Notes under the pieces: generated by a model
Seen by the model: only the letters and a program-made list of their open reading frames with translations
The model's database searches: none
What the model was told of the DNA's origin: nothing
Translations under genes and position numbers: made by a program
Shown here: one piece after another, positions 18,172-51,199 of the stretch
Position numbering within the stretch: the first letter of the stretch is position 1
Layout: every line of letters starts with the position of its first letter
Assembly (NCBI GenBank): GCA_964016885.1
Contig: OZ024743.1
Span: 231,818,001 to 231,882,000 of the forward strand
Length of the DNA stretch: 64,000 nt
Reading direction: 5' to 3'
Origin: Eledone cirrhosa
Taxonomy: Eukaryota

Positions 18172-18578
18172 TAGTGAAAACAATGAAATTAAATAAAATA
18201 CGGGTAATTCATAGTAAAACTCATTATTTTACGATCCTTTCTGGGGGGTAGTTCTCCGTATGTTCATTCTATTAGTGATATATGTAAAATATATTACAAA
18301 TTATCAAAGTAAGAAAATATACATAGGTCGTCCCTGCCCGCCTTCTTCAGAAATAATTATTTCTGTAGGGAAGACGTATGTATATTTTATGATGAGTGTT
18401 ACTATGAATTAACCGTATTTTGTTTAATTTCATTGTTTTCACTATTTGTATTATTTTCACTCTGCTTCCAATGAATTATATCGTTTAAATTTTGTATTTT
18501 AAACTTTGCTTCAAGACATCATCTACATACGGATTACATTGCGTTCTTCATGGACCCTACTATTGATTGGTGGATTTA

Positions 18579-18672
<94 letters not shown>

Positions 18673-18826
18673 TACACAGATAAACCCACCAATCAATGGT
18701 AGGGTCCAAGCCGTATGAAGAACTCAATGTAATCCATATGTAGATGATGTCTTGAAGCAAAGTTTAAAATACAAAATTTAAACGATATAATTCATTGGAA
18801 GCAGAGTCAAAATAATACAAATAGTG
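18172..18826. repeat. Family E zig-zag inverted repeats (18172-18226 vs 18389-18444; 18440-18583 vs 18675-18826 around (TA)n)
   Basis: Hinge CAGAAATAATTATTTCTG at 18348-18365. Shares ATTATTTCTGAAGA.GGCG and TACATTGAGTTCTTCATACGG with the PLE terminus at 56110-56445. Confidence 0.8.
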
Positions 18827-23914: not shown

Positions 23915-23928
23915 AATAATAATAATAA

Positions 23929-24665
23929 TTGAAAAATTGAGCAAGTATAAGGACCTGGAGATAGAAATTGGAAAAATGTGGAAATTGAGAACTAAAACAA
24001 TACCGGTGGTTGTAGGCGCTCTAGGAATGATACCTAAGGGGTCTAACGACTACTTATCGCAAATCCCAGGAAACCCGCGTATAGGAGAAATACAAAAGAT
24101 AGTACTAATGGGAACTGCCCATATACTAAGGAAGATCCTGTCAATATTAGTACATCACAAGTCTAAACACTAAGGATGCATTTGTGAATATGTATGTTCT
24201 TTCTTGAACATGGCGGACCTTGTTGTCTCTTGAGGTCACTGGTTGTGACTTGGTGATAACTCGTATGAACATAAAGCAAGATAAATGCAAATAATAATAA
24301 TAATAAAAATTGAGCAAGTATAAGGACCTGGAGATAGAAATTGGAAAAATGTGGAAATTGAGAACTAAAACAATACCAGTGGTTGTAGGCGCTCTGTGAA
24401 TGATACCTAAGGGGGCTAATGATTACTTATCGCAAATCCCAGGAAACCCGCGTATAGGAGAAATACAAAAGATAGTACTAATGGGAACTGCCCATATACT
24501 AAGGAAGATTCTGTCAATATAAGTACATCACAAGTCTAAACACTAAAGATGCATGTGTGAGTATGTATGTTCTTTCTTGAACATGGCGGACCTTGTTGTC
24601 TCTTGAGGTCACTGGTTGTGACTTGGTGATAACTCGTATGAACATAAAGCAAGATAAATGCAACT
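23929..24665 (+). mobile_element. Tandem 373-bp duplication of the 3' end of a second R4-like RLE LINE family
   Basis: Encodes EKLSKYKDLEIEIGKMWKLRTKTIPVVVGALG...IQKIVLMGTAHILRKIL. The copies are offset 373 bp (23937 and 24310) and each is followed by (TAA)n. Confidence 0.85.
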
Positions 24666-24754
<89 letters not shown>

Positions 24755-35377: not shown

Positions 35378-35998
35378 ATACATTAACAGAAACAGCTTTA
35401 AGCAATACTCCGACCGTCTTCCGTCTCACTCAACAAACATTAGGATATACCTCAGTATAATCCCAATTATACGTTTGGGGTGCTAACTATACGTATTTTA
35501 TGTAGGTGGGCACTTATAAATCATCAGTGGATGCCCGACAAATATCGATATAAAAAAAACATTAACGATATTAATGTTCAGCGATGGTATCCCTGAGTGC
35601 TAGAATGACCGGCAAATTTGAAATTCCAGCAGTCTCACAATGAGAAATCTCACACTGCCATCAAGCGGAAAGGTGAGGTCATCGCAAAACATAAAATAAT
35701 AAAATAATATGCACGCGGGTCAATTAATTCTTTCAATAATTTTAACCATGCGTGAACAACTCAATTGGATATTAAAAAAAATTATATGCATGTATTATTT
35801 ATACACGCATGTAGGTATTTTCTTAGGCTAAAAACAGAGATAAGATACCGGAAGAACAATCAATATGTCATACAAAGGATAAATACGGAAAGTCATAACT
35901 AAAAAGTATCTGGAAATATTCATATGTATATATATATATTTATATATGTATATATATATAAATATATATATATATATGTACATATATATATGTATATG

Positions 35999-36065
<67 letters not shown>

Positions 36066-36074
36066 ATATATATG

Positions 36075-36133
<59 letters not shown>

Positions 36134-36357
36134 CAATTAAGTTAAAGATGTACATCCATATATGTATACTGAAATACTAGTATGTATATGAATACACACA
36201 CGTATACATATGTAGATGTACCAAGTTTTTTTCACTGGTCACTTTACTGTGAGTGGCCAGCTATTCTGTATGTAAACACACAGACAAACCGGTTTTTAGA
36301 GTCATACTGGTTTTTGAGGAAACACCTTTCCTCTATTCTCCAGAAAGCCAGACAAGG

Positions 36358-36402
36358 AATATTGAACTAGTTTCGTTGTTGTTACAACTCATCAGCAATA
36401 TT
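36358..36402 (-). ncRNA. Minimal Type I hammerhead ribozyme, unit 1
   Basis: AATATTG CTGATGA GTTGT AACA ACAAC GAAA CTAG TT CAATATT. Confidence 0.88.
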
Positions 36403-36825
36403 TACCTATCTTCCGGCCTCTCTAGAGAATCGTAAAAGCACATATCGTTATATGCTTTTTCTATGAAAATTAGTAGTGGGCAGACCAATTTGCATAGAGT
36501 GTGAGTAAGTACCGGTTCAACGGAGACGATAAAAACAAATAACGAAACGAAATTAAATTTCGTTTCGTTTGTAACTCACTTTTGTATGACTGACGCTTAA
36601 ACAATTAAGTTAAAGATGTACATCCATATATGTATACTGAAATACTAGTATGTATATGAATACACACACGTATACATATGTAGATGTACCAAGTTTTTTT
36701 CACTGGTCACTTTACTGTGAGTGGCCAGCTATTCTGTATGTAAACACACAGACAAACCGGTTTTTAGAGTCATACTGGTTTTTGAGGAAACACCTTTCCT
36801 CTATTCTCCAGAAAGCCAGACAAGG

Positions 36826-36870
36826 AATATTGAACTAGTTTCGTTGTTGTTACAACTCATCAGCAATATT
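36826..36870 (-). ncRNA. Minimal Type I hammerhead ribozyme, unit 2
   Basis: Identical to unit 1, offset +468. Confidence 0.88.
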
Positions 36871-37293
36871 TACCTATCTTCCGGCCTCTCTAGAGAATCG
36901 TAAAAGCACATATCGTTATATGCTTTTTCTATGAAAATTAGTAGTGGGCAGACCAATTTGCATAGAGTGTGAGTAAGTACCGGTTCAACGGAGACGATAA
37001 AAACAAATAACGAAACGAAATTAAATTTCGTTTCGTTTGTAACTCACTTTTGTATGACTGACGCTTAAACAATTAAGTTAAAGATGTACATCCATATATG
37101 TATACTGAAATACTAGTATGTATATGAATACACACACGTATACATATGTAGATGTACCAAGTTTTTTTCACTGGTCACTTTACTGTGAGTGGCCAGCTAT
37201 TCTGTATGTAAACACACAGACAAACCGGTTTTTAGAGTCATACTGGTTTTTGAGGAAACACCTTTCCTCTATTCTCCAGAAAGCCAGACAAGG

Positions 37294-37338
37294 AATATTG
37301 AACTAGTTTCGTTGTTGTTACAACTCATCAGCAATATT
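37294..37338 (-). ncRNA. Minimal Type I hammerhead ribozyme, unit 3
   Basis: Identical to unit 1. Confidence 0.88.
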
Positions 37339-37761
37339 TACCTATCTTCCGGCCTCTCTAGAGAATCGTAAAAGCACATATCGTTATATGCTTTTTCTAT
37401 GAAAATTAGTAGTGGGCAGACCAATTTGCATAGAGTGTGAGTAAGTACCGGTTCAACGGAGACGATAAAAACAAATAACGAAACGAAATTAAATTTCGTT
37501 TCGTTTGTAACTCACTTTTGTATGACTGACGCTTAAACAATTAAGTTAAAGATGTACATCCATATATGTATACTGAAATACTAGTATGTATATGAATACA
37601 CACACGTATACATATGTAGATGTACCAAGTTTTTTTCACTGGTCACTTTACTGTGAGTGGCCAGCTATTCTGTATGTAAACACACAGACAAACCGGTTTT
37701 TAGAGTCATACTGGTTTTTGAGGAAACACCTTTCCTCTATTCTCCAGAAAGCCAGACAAGG

Positions 37762-37806
37762 AATATTGAACTAGTTTCGTTGTTGTTACAACTCATCAGA
37801 AATATT
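37762..37806 (-). ncRNA. Minimal Type I hammerhead ribozyme, unit 4 (stem I mismatch at 37800)
   Basis: One substitution in the stem I pair next to the core. Confidence 0.8.
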
Positions 37807-38229
37807 TACCTATCTTCCGGCCTCTCTAGAGAATCGTAAAAGCACATATCGTTATATGCTTTTTCTATGAAAATTAGTAGTGGGCAGACCAATTTGCATA
37901 GAGTGTGAGTAAGTACCGGTTCAACGGAGACGATAAAAACAAATAACGAAACGAAATTAAATTTCGTTTCGTTTGTAACTCACTTTTGTATGACTGACGC
38001 TTAAACAATTAAGTTAAAGATGTACATCCATATATGTATACTGAAATACTAGTATGTATATGAATACACACACGTATACATATGTAGATGTACCAAGTTT
38101 TTTTCACTGGTCACTTTACTGTGAGTGGCCAGCTATTCTGTATGTAAACACACAGACAAACCGGTTTTTAGAGTCATACTGGTTTTTGAGGAAACACCTT
38201 TCCTCTATTCTCCAGAAAGCCAGACAAGG

Positions 38230-38274
38230 AATATTGAACTAGTTTCGTTGTTGTTACAACTCATCAGCAATATT
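38230..38274 (-). ncRNA. Minimal Type I hammerhead ribozyme, unit 5
   Basis: Identical to unit 1; lies 5 nt from the inversion junction. Confidence 0.88.
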
Positions 38275-38333
38275 TACCTTTTACGATTCTCGATGTGCTT
38301 TTACGATTCTCTAGAGAGGCCGGAAGATAGGTA

Positions 38334-38378
38334 AATATTTCTGATGAGTTGTAACAACAACGAAACTAGTTCAATATT
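38334..38378 (+). ncRNA. Minimal Type I hammerhead ribozyme, inverted unit (stem I mismatch at 38340)
   Basis: Carries the same substitution as unit 4. Confidence 0.8.
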
Positions 38379-38801
38379 CCTTGTCTGGCTTTCTGGAGAA
38401 TAGAGGAAAGGTGTTTCCTCAAAAACCAGTATGACTCTAAAAACCGGTTTGTCTGTGTGTTTACATACAGAATAGCTGGCCACTCACAGTAAAGTGACCA
38501 GTGAAAAAAACTTGGTACATCTACATATGTATACGTGTGTGTATTCATATACATACTAGTATTTCAGTATACATATATGGATGTACATCTTTAACTTAAT
38601 TGTTTAAGCGTCAGTCATATAAAAGTGAGTTACAAACGAAACGAAATTTAATTTCGTTTCGTTATTTGTTTTTATCGTCTCCGTTGAACCGGTACTTACT
38701 CACACTCTATGCAAATTGGTCTGCCCACTACTAATTTTCATAGAAAAAGCATATAACGATATGTGCTTTTACGATTCTCTAGAGAGGCCGGAAGATAGGT
38801 A

Positions 38802-38846
38802 AATATTGCTGATGAGTTGTAACAACAACGAAACTAGTTCAATATT
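38802..38846 (+). ncRNA. Minimal Type I hammerhead ribozyme, inverted unit
   Basis: AATATTGCTGATGAGTTGTAACAACAACGAAACTAGTTCAATATT; predicted cut after 38839. Confidence 0.88.
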
Positions 38847-39269
38847 CCTTGTCTGGCTTTCTGGAGAATAGAGGAAAGGTGTTTCCTCAAAAACCAGTAT
38901 GACTCTAAAAACCGGTTTGTCTGTGTGTTTACATACAGAATAGCTGGCCACTCACAGTAAAGTGACCAGTGAAAAAAACTTGGTACATCTACATATGTAT
39001 ACGTGTGTGTATTCATATACATACTAGTATTTCAGTATACATATATGGATGTACATCTTTAACTTAATTGTTTAAGCGTCAGTCATACAAAAGTGAGTTA
39101 CAAACGAAACGAAATTTAATTTCGTTTCGTTATTTGTTTTTATCGTCTCCGTTGAACCGGTACTTACTCACACTCTATGCAAATTGGTCTGCCCACTACT
39201 AATTTTCATAGAAAAAGCATATAACGATATGTGCTTTTACGATTCTCTAGAGAGGCCGGAAGATAGGTA

Positions 39270-39314
39270 AATATTGCTGATGAGTTGTAACAACAACGAA
39301 ACTAGTTCAATATT
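39270..39314 (+). ncRNA. Minimal Type I hammerhead ribozyme, inverted unit
   Basis: Identical to 38802-38846, offset +468. Confidence 0.88.
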
Positions 39315-39737
39315 CCTTGTCTGGCTTTCTGGAGAATAGAGGAAAGGTGTTTCCTCAAAAACCAGTATGACTCTAAAAACCGGTTTGTCTGTGTGTTTAC
39401 ATACAGAATAGCTGGCCACTCACAGTAAAGTGACCAGTGAAAAAAACTTGGTACATCTACATATGTATACGTGTGTGTATTCATATACATACTAGTATTT
39501 CAGTATACATATATGGATGTACATCTTTAACTTAATTGTTTAAGCGTCAGTCATACAAAAGTGAGTTACAAACGAAACGAAATTTAATTTCGTTTCGTTA
39601 TTTGCTTTTATCGTCTCCGTTGAACCGGTACTTACTCACACTCTATGCAAATTGGTCTGCCCACTACTAATTTTCATAGAAAAAGCATATAACGATATGT
39701 GCTTTTACGATTCTCTAGAGAGGCCGGAAGATAGGTA

Positions 39738-39782
39738 AATATTGCTGATGAGTTGTAACAACAACGAAACTAGTTCAATATT
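39738..39782 (+). ncRNA. Minimal Type I hammerhead ribozyme, inverted unit
   Basis: Identical to 39270-39314, offset +468. Confidence 0.88.
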
Positions 39783-40072
39783 CCTTGTCTGGCTTTCTGG
39801 AGAATAGAGGAAAGGTGTTTCCTCAAAAACCAGTATGACTCTAAAAACCGGTTTGTCTGTGTGTTTACATACAGAATAGCTGGCCACTCACAGTAAAGTG
39901 ACCAGTGAAAAAAACTTGGTACATCTACATATGTATACGTGTGTGTATTCATATACATACTAGTATTTCAGTATACATATATGGATGTACATCTTTAACT
40001 TAATTGTTTAAGCGTCAGTCATACAAAAGTGAGTTACAAACGAAACGAAATTTAATTTCGTTTCGTTATTTG

Positions 40073-40121
<49 letters not shown>

Positions 40122-40127
<6 letters not shown>

Positions 40128-40680
40128 TAATAATAATAAAATTGAAGACTAAAATCCAAAGAGGGCTCGATAAGGATAAATATATATCAAATATATAAGA
40201 ACCGTAGAGCAGATATTTATTAAAATAACAGATTAAAGTTTAAGCAAAGAATCGCTGCTTTCACCCTTAACGGGATCTTCTGAAACTAACAAAGTAAATC
40301 TGTAAACACAGAAGTGGGTATTTCAAAAAACGTTGCAACCGGAGGAAGACAGGAAGACGATACTTTGGTTCGTGGAAACGTTCCCTGGCAAAGAACGGCA
40401 AAAAAACGAATATAATACGTCATTAATAGGAGCGGTGAAAAACAATTACGCGCAAAGACAGAACCACGTTTATGGTATAAAAGAAGTCGTAGACTAATGT
40501 TCTCTTAGGTGGTTCATAGAGACGTTCTCTGGCTATGAACGGAAACAACGAAGATAATAAGTCATATGTGGAGCGTGGAGAACAATTGCACGCAAAGACA
40601 AAACCACGTAAATGGTATAACTGAAGTCGTAGACTAAAATTCTAACTAGGAAACCGAATGAATCTCCGCTTCAGAGTTAA
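40122..40680 (-). repeat. Family F repeat with HHR-like motif at 40237-40287 and internal ~145-bp duplication
   Basis: AGTTT CAGAAGA T CCC GTTAA GGG T GAAA GCA GCGATTCTT TGC TT AAACT; the core has A at position 4. Confidence 0.65.
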
Positions 40681-40898
40681 GAATAACGTAAATAAAATAC
40701 AATACAGAGGTAATAGAAATTAAATAAATACATACACGCATGCAAATACGTACATACACAAGCATACGCGAAAACACTCGCCATAGGTATACAAAACCAC
40801 GCACATATAAATATGTGTGTGTGTGTGTGTATACAAATAAATAAATAATTAAATAAACGTATATAAATAAATAAATACGTATATAACAAGCGCATACT

Positions 40899-40936
<38 letters not shown>

Positions 40937-40957
<21 letters not shown>

Positions 40958-41071
40958 ATGTTAGGTGAATCCATACGTACATATATATATGTGTGCATGT
41001 ATGTATATATATATACATACTACTGTACGTCTGTATACATATATGTATGTACGTATACATACTTATATTTA

Positions 41072-41169
<98 letters not shown>

Positions 41170-41690
41170 AATATAAGTATGTATACGTACATACATATAT
41201 GTATACAGACGTACAGTAGTATGTATATATATGCATACATGCACATATATATATATGTGTGTACGTATGGATTCACCTAACATTTATTATAATGCCTTGT
41301 GTGTTTGTAAACAAACATCCCGAATTAAGCCGTACAGTGTCTAGCAACCATCGTTGCTCATTTGTTCAACACTGACAAAGGAACGCTGTACTAGTTGCAA
41401 GCTTATTAGCTATCGTCAGCAACGTATACCTTCTTGCCAGATGATTGAACGTCTAAAAGTATATACTTTCCTTATGCATATTAACGGCTCAGCAGCCTAA
41501 TTTGCATATCGAGTGAGTTAATCGGCCGGGGTATCGAAAACGATAAACGGAAAAAATGAAACGAAATTTCATTTCTCACTCTTAGTACGGCTGTTACTTA
41601 AATATAAATATGTATACATACATACATACATATATGTATACAGACGTACAGTAGTATGCATATATATATACATACATGCAAACATATATA
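40937..41690. repeat. Family A: 435-bp-period tandem (minus, 41165-41690) directly 3' of the PLE ORF, plus an inverted partial copy (40937-41070) across (TA)n
   Basis: CAGACGTACAGTAGTATG at 41206 and 41641. The HHR at 41383-41425 (minus) has GCAA for GAAA. Confidence 0.85.
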
Positions 41691-41691
41691 T

Positions 41692-42471
41692 TATTATTGT
41701 TCATTTATTTTGGGTTGGAATTTATCAATAAAATTATTTTCTTTGATTTTTCTTTTGATTTTACTTGGGCTGTGTAATTTGTAGAATAGAAATTTTGTAA
41801 ATATCCTCTGACCACGTGTTGCTAGATGGTTATTAGGGGTATCTGACAGACATTTGGATCTCTGATTTGCTGTCGGTGTACCCGTGCACTTTCCGATAGT
41901 GCATTTCCAGTTTTACCGACATATAGTTCTTCACAATTCGGGCATTTAATGCAGTAAATTAGATTTCTGCTTTTGCAGTTCATATTTGCATTTGGGAATA
42001 TTTTTCCTGTGTTCATATATTGACCGGTGTGTATGGATTGACATGTGCCACATCGAATATCATTGCATTTAGATACAGTGAATGATTGGTCTTTGTTGTT
42101 AAGGTCAAAATTTGCTTTTGTTAGTAATTGCTTCAAATTTTTCGGCTGTCTTTTACTAAGAGTCAAAGATCGATCTGCGATTAAGCCTTTTAATTCATTA
42201 CTTTAAGCAATGATCGGTAGGTTTGCTTTGGCAGTGTTGAAGATATTCTGGTGACATGGGTCGTGTGTAATTATAAATGGTATGACCAGTTCGTGGTTTC
42301 TTCTTCCTAGGGTTGTCCTAAGTTCTTGTATAGGTATTTTTATAGCCCGCTGTATGCCATTTTCAAAAAGTAGAGATGGGTATTTTTGTTTGAGCAAAAA
42401 TTCTCTTAGTTCTGTTAGGCGTTTGTTCCTGGTATTCGTATCTTCTACAATGGTACAAATTATTACGGCTA
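41692..42471 (-). pseudogene. 5'-truncated Penelope-like element (Neptune-like): RT thumb, Cys linker and GIY-YIG endonuclease
   Basis: LLKQKYP, KRQPKNLKQLL, CNDIRCGTC, CKSRNLIYCIKCPNCEELYVGKTG..H and C-terminal FYKL..KENNFIDKFQPKIN*; frameshifted. Confidence 0.88.
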
Positions 42472-42481
42472 TACACACACA

Positions 42482-42519
<38 letters not shown>

Positions 42520-42524
<5 letters not shown>

Positions 42525-42736
42525 ATAATAGTAAATTTGAAGACTAAAATCCAAAGAGGGTTCGATAAGGATAAATATATATCAAATATATAAGAACCGT
42601 AGAGCAAATATTTATTAAAATAACAGATTAAAGGTTAAGCAAAGAATCGCTGCTTTAACCCTTAACGGGATCTTCAGAAGATCTCGTTAAGGGTGAAAGC
42701 ATGAATTCTTTGCTTAAACTTTAATCTGTTATTTTA

Positions 42737-42744
<8 letters not shown>
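42520..42744. repeat. Family F hairpin (arms 42608-42675 and 42677-42744) hinged inside the HHR core
   Basis: GATCTTC A GAAGATC centre at 42676, with (TA)n on both sides. Confidence 0.85.
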
Positions 42745-48377: not shown

Positions 48378-49046
48378 GTATATTTATTGATAATAACAAC
48401 AATTCAAAATTTCAGGTCCGTTTGGGAACAAAATTGACCAATGAAAACACAAAGGGTTAAATGCAGTTCGGTGTGTGTATATACATGTAAAACCCTTACA
48501 CATATTTTACAAAAATGTATGTATAATTTGTATACGCATACTAAAAGGATGGATGCAAATACAAAATTTCAAGGTTAATGTCTCTGTAGGTTTATAATGC
48601 ACAGATAAGATGCGTATTGACACTTTTGAAATTAAGTATATAAATATATTTTTTCATACACACACATATCCGTACAATCACACATACACGCGCGTATATG
48701 CATAAATATACATAACCACGAACATACAAACACACACACACCCCCACTCACATTTATATATGTGGATATAAAATCATAAGCACATGGATATTAATTCACT
48801 CACATAAAACACTGGCACACACATTTTTAGATCAAGATACAGAAATTAGGTGGGAGGGGGGGGGGAGAGGTCAGTGTTCAACGGTCTGAGCTGACTGCCT
48901 AATATAGATGTATCTATAAACTAAGAAAATAATAAATAAATAAACATTAAAGAGGAAAGAATAGAAAGAAAACAGAAAAAAGAAAAAAGAAAAAAGAAAA
49001 AAGAAATATATCAAGAAAATAAATATATATATATATATACATATAT

Positions 49047-49085
<39 letters not shown>

Positions 49086-49272
49086 TATATATATATATAA
49101 TATACATATATATACACATATACACACATACACACATACATAAATATACACACATATATACAAACACATACATACATATACACACATCCACACTAAGAAC
49201 ATACATACACACACATATATAAACATATACATATACACACATACATACATATACACATATACATACAAATAC

Positions 49273-49347
<75 letters not shown>

Positions 49348-49711
49348 TATGTATATACACGTACATATACACACACTTATACATATGATCACACATACTA
49401 TATAGACACAGATATATATAACCACACACATACATGCACATATACAATACTTACATACTAATATACATACAGATATACACATACATAGCTATATATACAC
49501 ACAAATATATACAGACTTACATATATACATACAGACAAATACTTACGCATCTATATATCGGTATATACATACAAACACCACTACACTATCACACAACTTA
49601 GAAATACAAAGAGAAAGGTATATACCTATACACACATACATATACAAATAGAAAAACATATAGATATATATATATATATACACACACATATACATACACA
49701 TATATATATAT

Positions 49712-49754
<43 letters not shown>

Positions 49755-49977
49755 ATATACACATACACACACATACACATATACACACATACATACATGT
49801 ACACACACATAGAAATATATACGCATACACACATACACACATACATATAAAGTCATATACACACATACACCTACACGAACATACACATACACATATATAA
49901 AGATATATATACACACACACACACACACACAACACATACACACATACATATATATATAAAAAAAATATAAATAATAA

Positions 49978-50048
<71 letters not shown>

Positions 50049-50423
50049 CATACACACAAATATACATACACATACATACACACATACATATACATACATG
50101 TACATACATACACGTACATCAATATACATACATATATATATACACACATAGACATATACATACATACACACACATCTTACATACACACATATATATACAT
50201 GTATATTCATACATAGAATTAGATATATAATCATACATACATATGTACTTACTTATACTCATATATACAAATACATACGCATCCATATATGCGTATATAC
50301 ATAAAAACACCACTACAACCTCACCTAACTCAGACATACAAATAAAAATAAAAAGGCATATGCATATACATATATACACGCATTAATAGAGATATATATA
50401 TAGATACATACATATATATATAT

Positions 50424-50467
<44 letters not shown>

Positions 50468-50712
50468 ATTCATACATATATATATATAGATACCCACACA
50501 CTCATACCACCATAAATACACATACAAACACCCACATATACATATATATATACACACGCATATATATATATATATATACACACACATAAAAAACAGACAT
50601 GCACATATATATATATTTTTTTACACTTATATATACACATATTATATACACATACACAACCTCACATATACACACATACACATAAGTTATATTATAATAA
50701 TAAAAAATAAAA

Positions 50713-50759
<47 letters not shown>

Positions 50760-50845
50760 CATATATATATATATATATATACATATAAACATATACATAC
50801 ATATATACACACATACGAATATAGACATATATTCACACATAGACA

Positions 50846-50893
<48 letters not shown>

Positions 50894-51199
50894 TACATAT
50901 ACACAGACATATATACACACTCACATATATATGTGTGTGTGCACACACACATATATACACACATACACATATATATACATAAACACATATATGTGCATAC
51001 ATGCACACACACACACATATATCACATAGATACGAAGATAGACATATAAATAGAGAGACATACATATATATACAACACACATACACACACATACATACAC
51101 ACACATATACATATGTTCTAGTCGATCGACTTTCGTCAAATCGGACCGAGGAAACTATGTTTCCGTTGGTCTTTCCAATTGCTAATACTATCTATCGGT

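Follow-up and report, generated by a model that had tools for sequence, protein, structure and literature searches.

Background

In the accessible part of a recent preprint, animal retrozymes are treated as non-autonomous derivatives of Penelope-like elements (PLEs), and a link between pLTRs and retrozymes is already argued (bioRxiv 10.64898/2026.07.22.740005; Li, Clavereau and Pollet 2026). According to the accessible parts of this preprint and of PMC7229834, animal non-LTR retrozymes are ORF-free tandem units of a few hundred bp that co-occur with PLEs, and each unit carries a type I hammerhead whose helix III is short and palindromic (PMC7229834). The elements that we describe here share these traits. 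The link to PLEs is drawn in those accessible parts from the shared ribozyme, from co-occurrence and from pLTR similarity, whereas here it comes from the anatomy of the insertions, no homologous pLTR having been found; fold-back arms, paired end sites and a 13-bp duplication are not described there.

Among the PLEs themselves, the available portions of PMC3846280 and PMC8557442 report that EN+ elements insert with a head-to-head inverted, 5'-truncated arm, a tail at one end and a bias towards (TA)n, and that the target duplication is about 10 bp, all of which resembles what is seen here. Unlike the EN+ PLEs of these portions, our elements are ORF-free, have a tail of 56 to 69 nt rather than 30 to 40, and form multimeric arms of up to ~31 units. 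A self-priming model has been put forward for PLEs (PMC3846280, available portion). In vitro, as far as the accessible text of PMC11167929 reports, two internal start sites define the tail and both strands are extended; the PLE is predicted to form a dimer, and insertion does not require the ribozyme. The start sites of that PLE lie inside a structured region, as do those described below. Ribozymes are not mentioned in the available part of PMC13282606. Non-coding, PLE-mobilised elements that insert as head-to-tail multicopies, as ours do, are known from Chlamys, MRC1 being an example; their 3' ends are generally similar to those of the autonomous partner (PMC8557442), while our elements resemble none of the PLE families examined.

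Results and discussion

A stack of elements directed into (TA)n tracts

The window, that is, the whole 64,000-nucleotide stretch of DNA that was analysed (G000:C4:231818001-231882000), belongs to a 3.0-Gb animal assembly rich in (TA)n. From 35.9 to 43.4 kb it holds a stack of elements in which every 3' end is directed into (TA)n tracts. A retrozyme array with a 468-bp unit is made of a left arm of 4.6 units (36132..38279, minus strand), with its outer end at a proximal site (unit position 397), and a right arm of 3.8 units (38293..40079, plus strand), which ends at a distal site (unit position 468) past a long tail hairpin. The arms meet head to head at a 13-nt linker (38280..38292) similar to unit positions 93-105. 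The (TA)n target flanks this insertion on the left (35922..36131) and on the right (40080..40124), the right tract being common to the 3' end of family C, a second, Nematis-like PLE. Its 3' UTR/pLTR, with a hammerhead-like motif, occupies 40125..40830 (minus strand) and is not homologous to the retrozymes. In the copies of this UTR that were read (40125-40830 in the window; L192-L220), the hammerhead-like fold has CAGAAGA instead of CUGANGA and a helix III of 4 bp.

Two 3' ends of a second retrozyme, family A, are directed into the next tract (41075..41169). A short plus-strand arm with a proximal end (40949..41074) lies tail-to-tail with the main copy and is probably a separate insertion. The main copy (41170..41693, minus strand) is a single-arm insertion of ~1.2 units whose 3' end, at the proximal site, faces the (TA)n tract; its end class matches that of other family A copies. 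Its type I hammerhead (41379..41431, minus strand) has the palindromic ACTAGT helix III and is predicted to be inactive, the GAAA core being changed to GCAA. Next to it lies a broken, 5'-truncated fragment of a PLE, family B (41694..42471, minus strand), comprising the RT thumb, a CX4CXXC linker and GIY-YIG, in which a single internal stop and, towards the end, a frameshift interrupt the reading frame. RVT_1 and GIY-YIG domains were found on a longer copy of this family. The order RT, CX2-5CxxC linker and C-terminal GIY-YIG with CCHH makes the ORF Neptune-like; the linker, as defined in PMC8557442, is shared with Nematis. A small family C fold-back insertion with one distal and one proximal end follows at 42515..42744. 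At the left edge, 1..540 (plus strand) is part of a fold-back family A insertion with one proximal and one distal end (L130), which extends beyond the window and contains an intact hammerhead at ~238-295 with an AACA loop and a GAAA core.

Elsewhere in the window, further inverted duplications surround microsatellites at 48949-50913, 54457-55533, 18513-18753 and 9760-9859. A 373-bp tandem duplication was seen in a LINE-like 3' end (23915-24685), with zf-RVT matches nearby that fall below the curated cut-off, and a 42-bp minisatellite at 6830-7282.

A clan of ORF-free retrozymes

Family A (~424-443 bp) and the 468-bp unit belong to a clan that also includes families A2 (472), 466 and 469, all ORF-free. 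The longest Met-started frames in clan units are of 62, 64 and 114 amino acids, the last one in an array with TA-rich tracts, and no PLE protein match was found inside clan arrays. The units stand in tandem, measure a few hundred bp and each carry a type I hammerhead; copies are dispersed and have target duplications longer than 4 bp (12-13 bp in five informative insertions). By unit structure, ribozyme type and absence of an ORF, the clan members are, on sequence grounds, animal non-LTR retrozymes. In family A, helix II has a U-U mismatch at its base, which resembles that of the axolotl HHR_Amex2, as far as the latter's accessible description goes.

One tight pattern detected 37,531 ribozyme cores genome-wide, and the reversed control none. 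For the 468 family, 99 full units at 20 loci differed from the window unit by a mean of 0.34% substitutions, a figure biased towards young copies since the 20 loci are the best matches; the family is very young. The 468 unit was also encountered, at 62-86% word share, in runs X1, X4, X5 and X6, which are labelled as four organisms from four studies. Among the longer arrays, one (L301, G000:C1:95645000-95654999) has a nine-unit, 4226-bp higher-order period marked by a short deletion, and at C3:12.27 Mb (L313) an A2-like array, now decayed, extends over more than 20 kb.

Homology and hammerhead covariation

The preliminary description had proposed that family A is collinear with the 468-bp unit, and this proved to be real. 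The local alignment score was 72, compared to a mean of 21 and a maximum of 36 over 300 dinucleotide shuffles (z 19), and global identity was 0.57, above the shuffled maximum of 0.51; these scores are conservative, because the family A copy used began with ~50 nt of inverted arm. Of the five motifs given there as shared, one could not be matched, in the form given, to any of the three copies tested. The 435-bp repetition reported for this part of the window was not found: only 1.2 units and one hammerhead are present, and TRF gives no 435-bp array there. Tandem arrays with a period of 424-459 bp are present elsewhere in the genome.

Compensatory changes had likewise been reported in the hammerhead stems. 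Over 13 representative units, two-sided changes were observed at 6 of the 17 pairs, and 92% of cells pair, compared to 34-49% for slid structures. The covariation score, 0.379, was equalled by none of 500 shuffles; as the 13 rows form two related groups, this amounts to about six or seven events and is not a p-value. A sister family shows an independent swap from U-A to A-U in helix II. Covariation thus supports selection on the ribozyme, as had been suggested. Rfam HH9 matches six of nine 468-unit hammerheads (E 6e-6), the score of 37.7 bits lying under its gathering score of 52, and in cofolding models a dimer would permit helix III pairing. The AACA loop said to be common to both families is not that of the hammerhead at 41379-41431, where the loop is AATA and the core GCAA; the AACA/GAAA form is found in the copy at ~238-295. 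A propagated, ribozyme-dead GCAA subfamily was considered and rejected, with 44 GCAA cores compared to 116 for G and T together at the same base.

A GUGAG/CUCAC helix is nearly invariant in the 13 units and spans the distal site, which makes priming at this site internal; its invariant pairs do not count as covariation evidence.

Family A is not the regular end of the adjacent PLE

Family A starts 0-4 nt past the TAA of the broken GIY-YIG ORF, on the same strand and with a pLTR-like end, much as first described. From this it had been proposed that family A is the true pLTR of a Neptune-like PLE, and that the 468 unit is its emancipated derivative. The other copies of the PLE speak against such an attachment. 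All 29 other top family B copies, as judged from alignment tables, continue into an unrelated 3' UTR that has a minimal hammerhead of its own, and 28 of these reach one of the two 3' ends of that UTR, which are 49 nt apart; the claimed attachment is thereby refuted. Among ten further family B loci with long open frames, nine have this other UTR and its hammerhead; at the tenth, no UTR match was obtained. Conversely, none of 29 family A loci other than that of the window adjoins a family B ORF, and a query joining ORF and family A found both only in the window among the best 40 of 3322 candidates. Alignment of the clan with the family B UTR gave only TA-repeat or 14-nt matches; a z of 6.6 for A2 against B was an artefact of this kind, due to a TA-repeat match. 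A pLTR origin of family A is accordingly exceedingly improbable. Family A and the 468 unit are sister, protein-free hammerhead-ribozyme elements and not the natural end of the neighbouring PLE gene.

Since the joining was met only in the window among these candidates and other family B copies have their own UTR, the B-A junction is a one-off, produced either by a later single-arm insertion with loss of target or by a template switch. It is possible, if rather doubtful, that reverse transcription switched from family A RNA to family B mRNA within one insertion, which would make family B the helper. In agreement with such a switch, neither the window nor 8.6 kb of adjoining sequence contains the family B UTR; family B targets (TA)n, has its two ends 49 nt apart, follows the end rule described below, and keeps open RT-EN frames of 774-775 amino acids in 10 of 150 scored copies; and the divergence of the two pieces (4.4% for B, 2.5% for A) is not significantly different (Fisher P = 0.16). 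The microhomology is only 2 nt, however, in a single case; at L077 and L088, single-arm copies are likewise joined to family C or to unrelated DNA, and family B and the clan have no common cis sequence. The alternative to a switch is a later family A insertion at (AAT)n behind the stop, with loss of the B UTR. Family A arms joined directly to family C sequence, in a manner analogous to the B-A junction, were observed at L077:1759-1853 and L088:1475-1557.

Search for an ORF-bearing parent

Clan homology was not detected in the 3' UTRs of PLE families B, C and D by alignment, nor in those of families E and F by eye and by profile scan. As possible parents of the clan, family C was discarded for its non-homologous UTR, family D (30 loci) for having neither hammerhead nor homology, and families E and F on reading by eye. 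A clan profile run on 153 redundant ORF-end rows matched directly behind an ORF only in the window; other hammerhead-bearing profile matches begin at least 700 nt downstream of ORF ends. Out of 330 matches to a variant-hammerhead pattern, 49 places were fetched, and no ORF-attached clan member was present among them. One variant-hammerhead pair 4.2 kb apart turned out to be a nine-unit higher-order repeat, and an ORF near L315 is separated from the clan sequence by a TA tract.

No autonomous partner was found among the PLE families examined. Family B is a candidate helper, as it has the same target, the same end rule and open frames; family C and others target (TA)n as well, and in none of them was sequence in common with the clan found. 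Family B copies (L329, at G000:C4:323944000-323953999; L117; L321-L328) appear to contain two overlapping frames, an upstream one of at least 426 amino acids and a 775-amino-acid RT-EN frame in -1 phase. The overlap is ~90 nt long, with a TTTTTTAAC run in all seven family copies examined. This may suggest a programmed frameshift in an element class described as having a single ORF. The upstream frame gave no clear Pfam or Atlas match.

One proximal and one distal end per insertion

Most clan insertions are head-to-head, with both 3' ends directed outward into (TA)n. In each family a hairpin is flanked by two ends, fixed and homologous, which are designated proximal and distal: positions 394-399 and 468 in the 468 family, ~413 and 472 in A2, and ~371 and 427 in family A, the distal site lying 56-69 nt beyond the proximal one. 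Among 107 insertion blocks, we counted 71 fold-backs, 35 single arms and one other. Leaving aside 12 fold-backs in which one end, truncated or chimeric, was unclassifiable, 58 of 59 had one proximal and one distal end, one had two proximal ends and none had two distal ends (binomial P = 2e-16 for a 50:50 expectation). The single arms ended at the proximal site in 15 cases, at the distal site in 15, and elsewhere in 5. The autonomous PLE families behave similarly, with one end of each kind in 17 of 19 fold-backs (5/5 for B and 12/14 for C, after four family C rows, in which a motif mismatch had mislabelled the ends, were re-read by eye). An inverted, 5'-truncated arm with a tail on one end and a microsatellite or AT-rich target are marks of PLE-mobilised elements. 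The rule is nearly strict in the clan, while the accessible portions of PMC3846280 and PMC8557442 qualify it as 'often' or 'optional' in EN+ PLEs. We found no statement of it for retrozymes in the accessible literature on Penelope twin priming and retrozyme insertion anatomy.

Of 21 insertions examined, five had informative flanks, and their target duplications were 13, 13, 13, 13 and 12 bp; for families B and C the length was unreadable, the flanks being pure (TA)n. In X1, an independent contig set that possibly comes from the same species or sample, (TA)n loose ends occur at exactly both sites.

At one chimeric locus (L103:4317-5909; G000:C3:124.4 Mb), a 468 arm passes without a break into three A2 units, the transition lying at the tail hairpin that both have in common; both outer ends are proximal, which goes against the end rule. 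This locus was not retained as proof of template switching between 468 and A2, as a nested single-arm insertion resolved at the shared hairpin explains it equally well.

Helitron-like rolling-circle elements are not known to make target duplications and give arrays of single polarity. Here, duplications and inverted arms speak against a Helitron-like identity. Taken more broadly, the proposal that unequal crossover built the arrays in place, as satellites, out of solo pLTRs, that they are fold-back artefacts of assembly or reads, or that they are Helitron-type rolling-circle products is very unlikely to be correct. Growth after insertion does happen, as very long arrays with higher-order repeats indicate (the nine-unit period of L301), and local amplification is proposed in the accessible part of Li et al. 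2026; but ends are fixed at every locus, target duplications are present, the flanks differ on each side, the arms are not mirror images, near-identity extends across many contigs, and the same ends recur in the independent contig set.

Origin of the two arms

Inner junctions vary between loci, so that each insertion is made anew; arm lengths are independent, and either arm may be the longer. Locus-private variants are common to both arms of an insertion; in the 468 array of the window, for instance, both arms carry 133G>T in their fourth unit. Where a site varies within one insertion, counting units from the outer ends gives agreement between the arms in 17 of 26 comparisons, compared to 7 of 26 when counted from the junction; the sample is small, its sites are not independent, and one locus, L095, fails (0/3). 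Period-2 alternation was seen in six arms, the pattern expected if the template was a dimeric circle or if the source repeat had two units. From this register, the varying junctions and the common private variants, we infer twin priming by a dimeric PLE enzyme, each strand using one of the start sites.

Alternatively, the inverted arm could be made by self-priming (snap-back), with the second end set by endonuclease cleavage at the tail, in line with PMC3846280 and PMC8557442. Six of 35 junctions are symmetric, and L096 is an exact mirror except for a 69-nt tail. Most junctions, however, are asymmetric with either arm longer, variants match in mirror order in only those 7 of 26 comparisons, and single arms use both ends equally. 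As the general source of the arms, self-priming is therefore unlikely; but the symmetric junctions exceed the expectation for two independent cDNAs, so snap-back priming contributes at least sometimes.

We consider it probable that the clan consists of sister ORF-free retrozymes copied into (TA)n by a PLE enzyme, with the family A copy behind family B as a one-off; the asymmetry of proximal and distal ends in mirror-image insertions likely records a PLE-type enzyme copying from both DNA strands at once. Under such a twin-priming scheme, arrays would be transcribed as multimers, which a dimeric hammerhead with its palindromic helix III could cut to monomers and circles. A PLE RT/GIY-YIG dimer would bind the tail hairpin domain and nick both target strands ~13 bp apart; one cDNA would be primed at the proximal and the other at the distal internal start site, each running through a multimeric or circular template, and the two would be joined head-to-head by microhomology. 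Where only one arm was made or kept, its 5' end would be joined to another RNA or to the flanking DNA; the family A copy of the window may be such a single arm, joined to the family B fragment. The preliminary description had suggested an emancipated terminal unit mobilised in trans: insertion anatomy supports movement in trans by PLE machinery, while an ORF-bearing parent was not found among the PLE families examined.

Conclusions

The element class and the PLE hypothesis are already known, and the specific pLTR link first proposed for this locus is wrong. The lasting value of the analysis lies in the near-strict rule of one proximal and one distal end which, with the 13-bp stagger, ties retrozyme movement to PLE chemistry. 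The questions addressed are the inverted terminal repeats of PLEs, their one-sided tails and the mobilisation of animal retrozymes. A further-reading proposal, to which we give an even chance, is that the clan is a genome-scale footprint of PLE integration, in which a dimeric enzyme would use the two internal start sites asymmetrically, each target strand receiving one of them and both often lying on a single multimeric or dimeric-circle RNA. In vitro, the accessible text of PMC11167929 reports no difference between strands in the choice of start site, and this counts against one site per strand.

With tens of thousands of copies, integration models become testable by counting, and the in vitro PLE assay that already exists gains a compact substrate in the 468-nt template, which is young and has both start sites mapped, its target defined and a stagger of 13 bp. 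If the footprint proposal is true, one twin-priming event would account for both the inverted pLTR and the one-sided tail in all EN+ PLEs, and retrozyme arrays would be multimers from the outset, exploiting a structure-based signal without pLTR homology to their helper.
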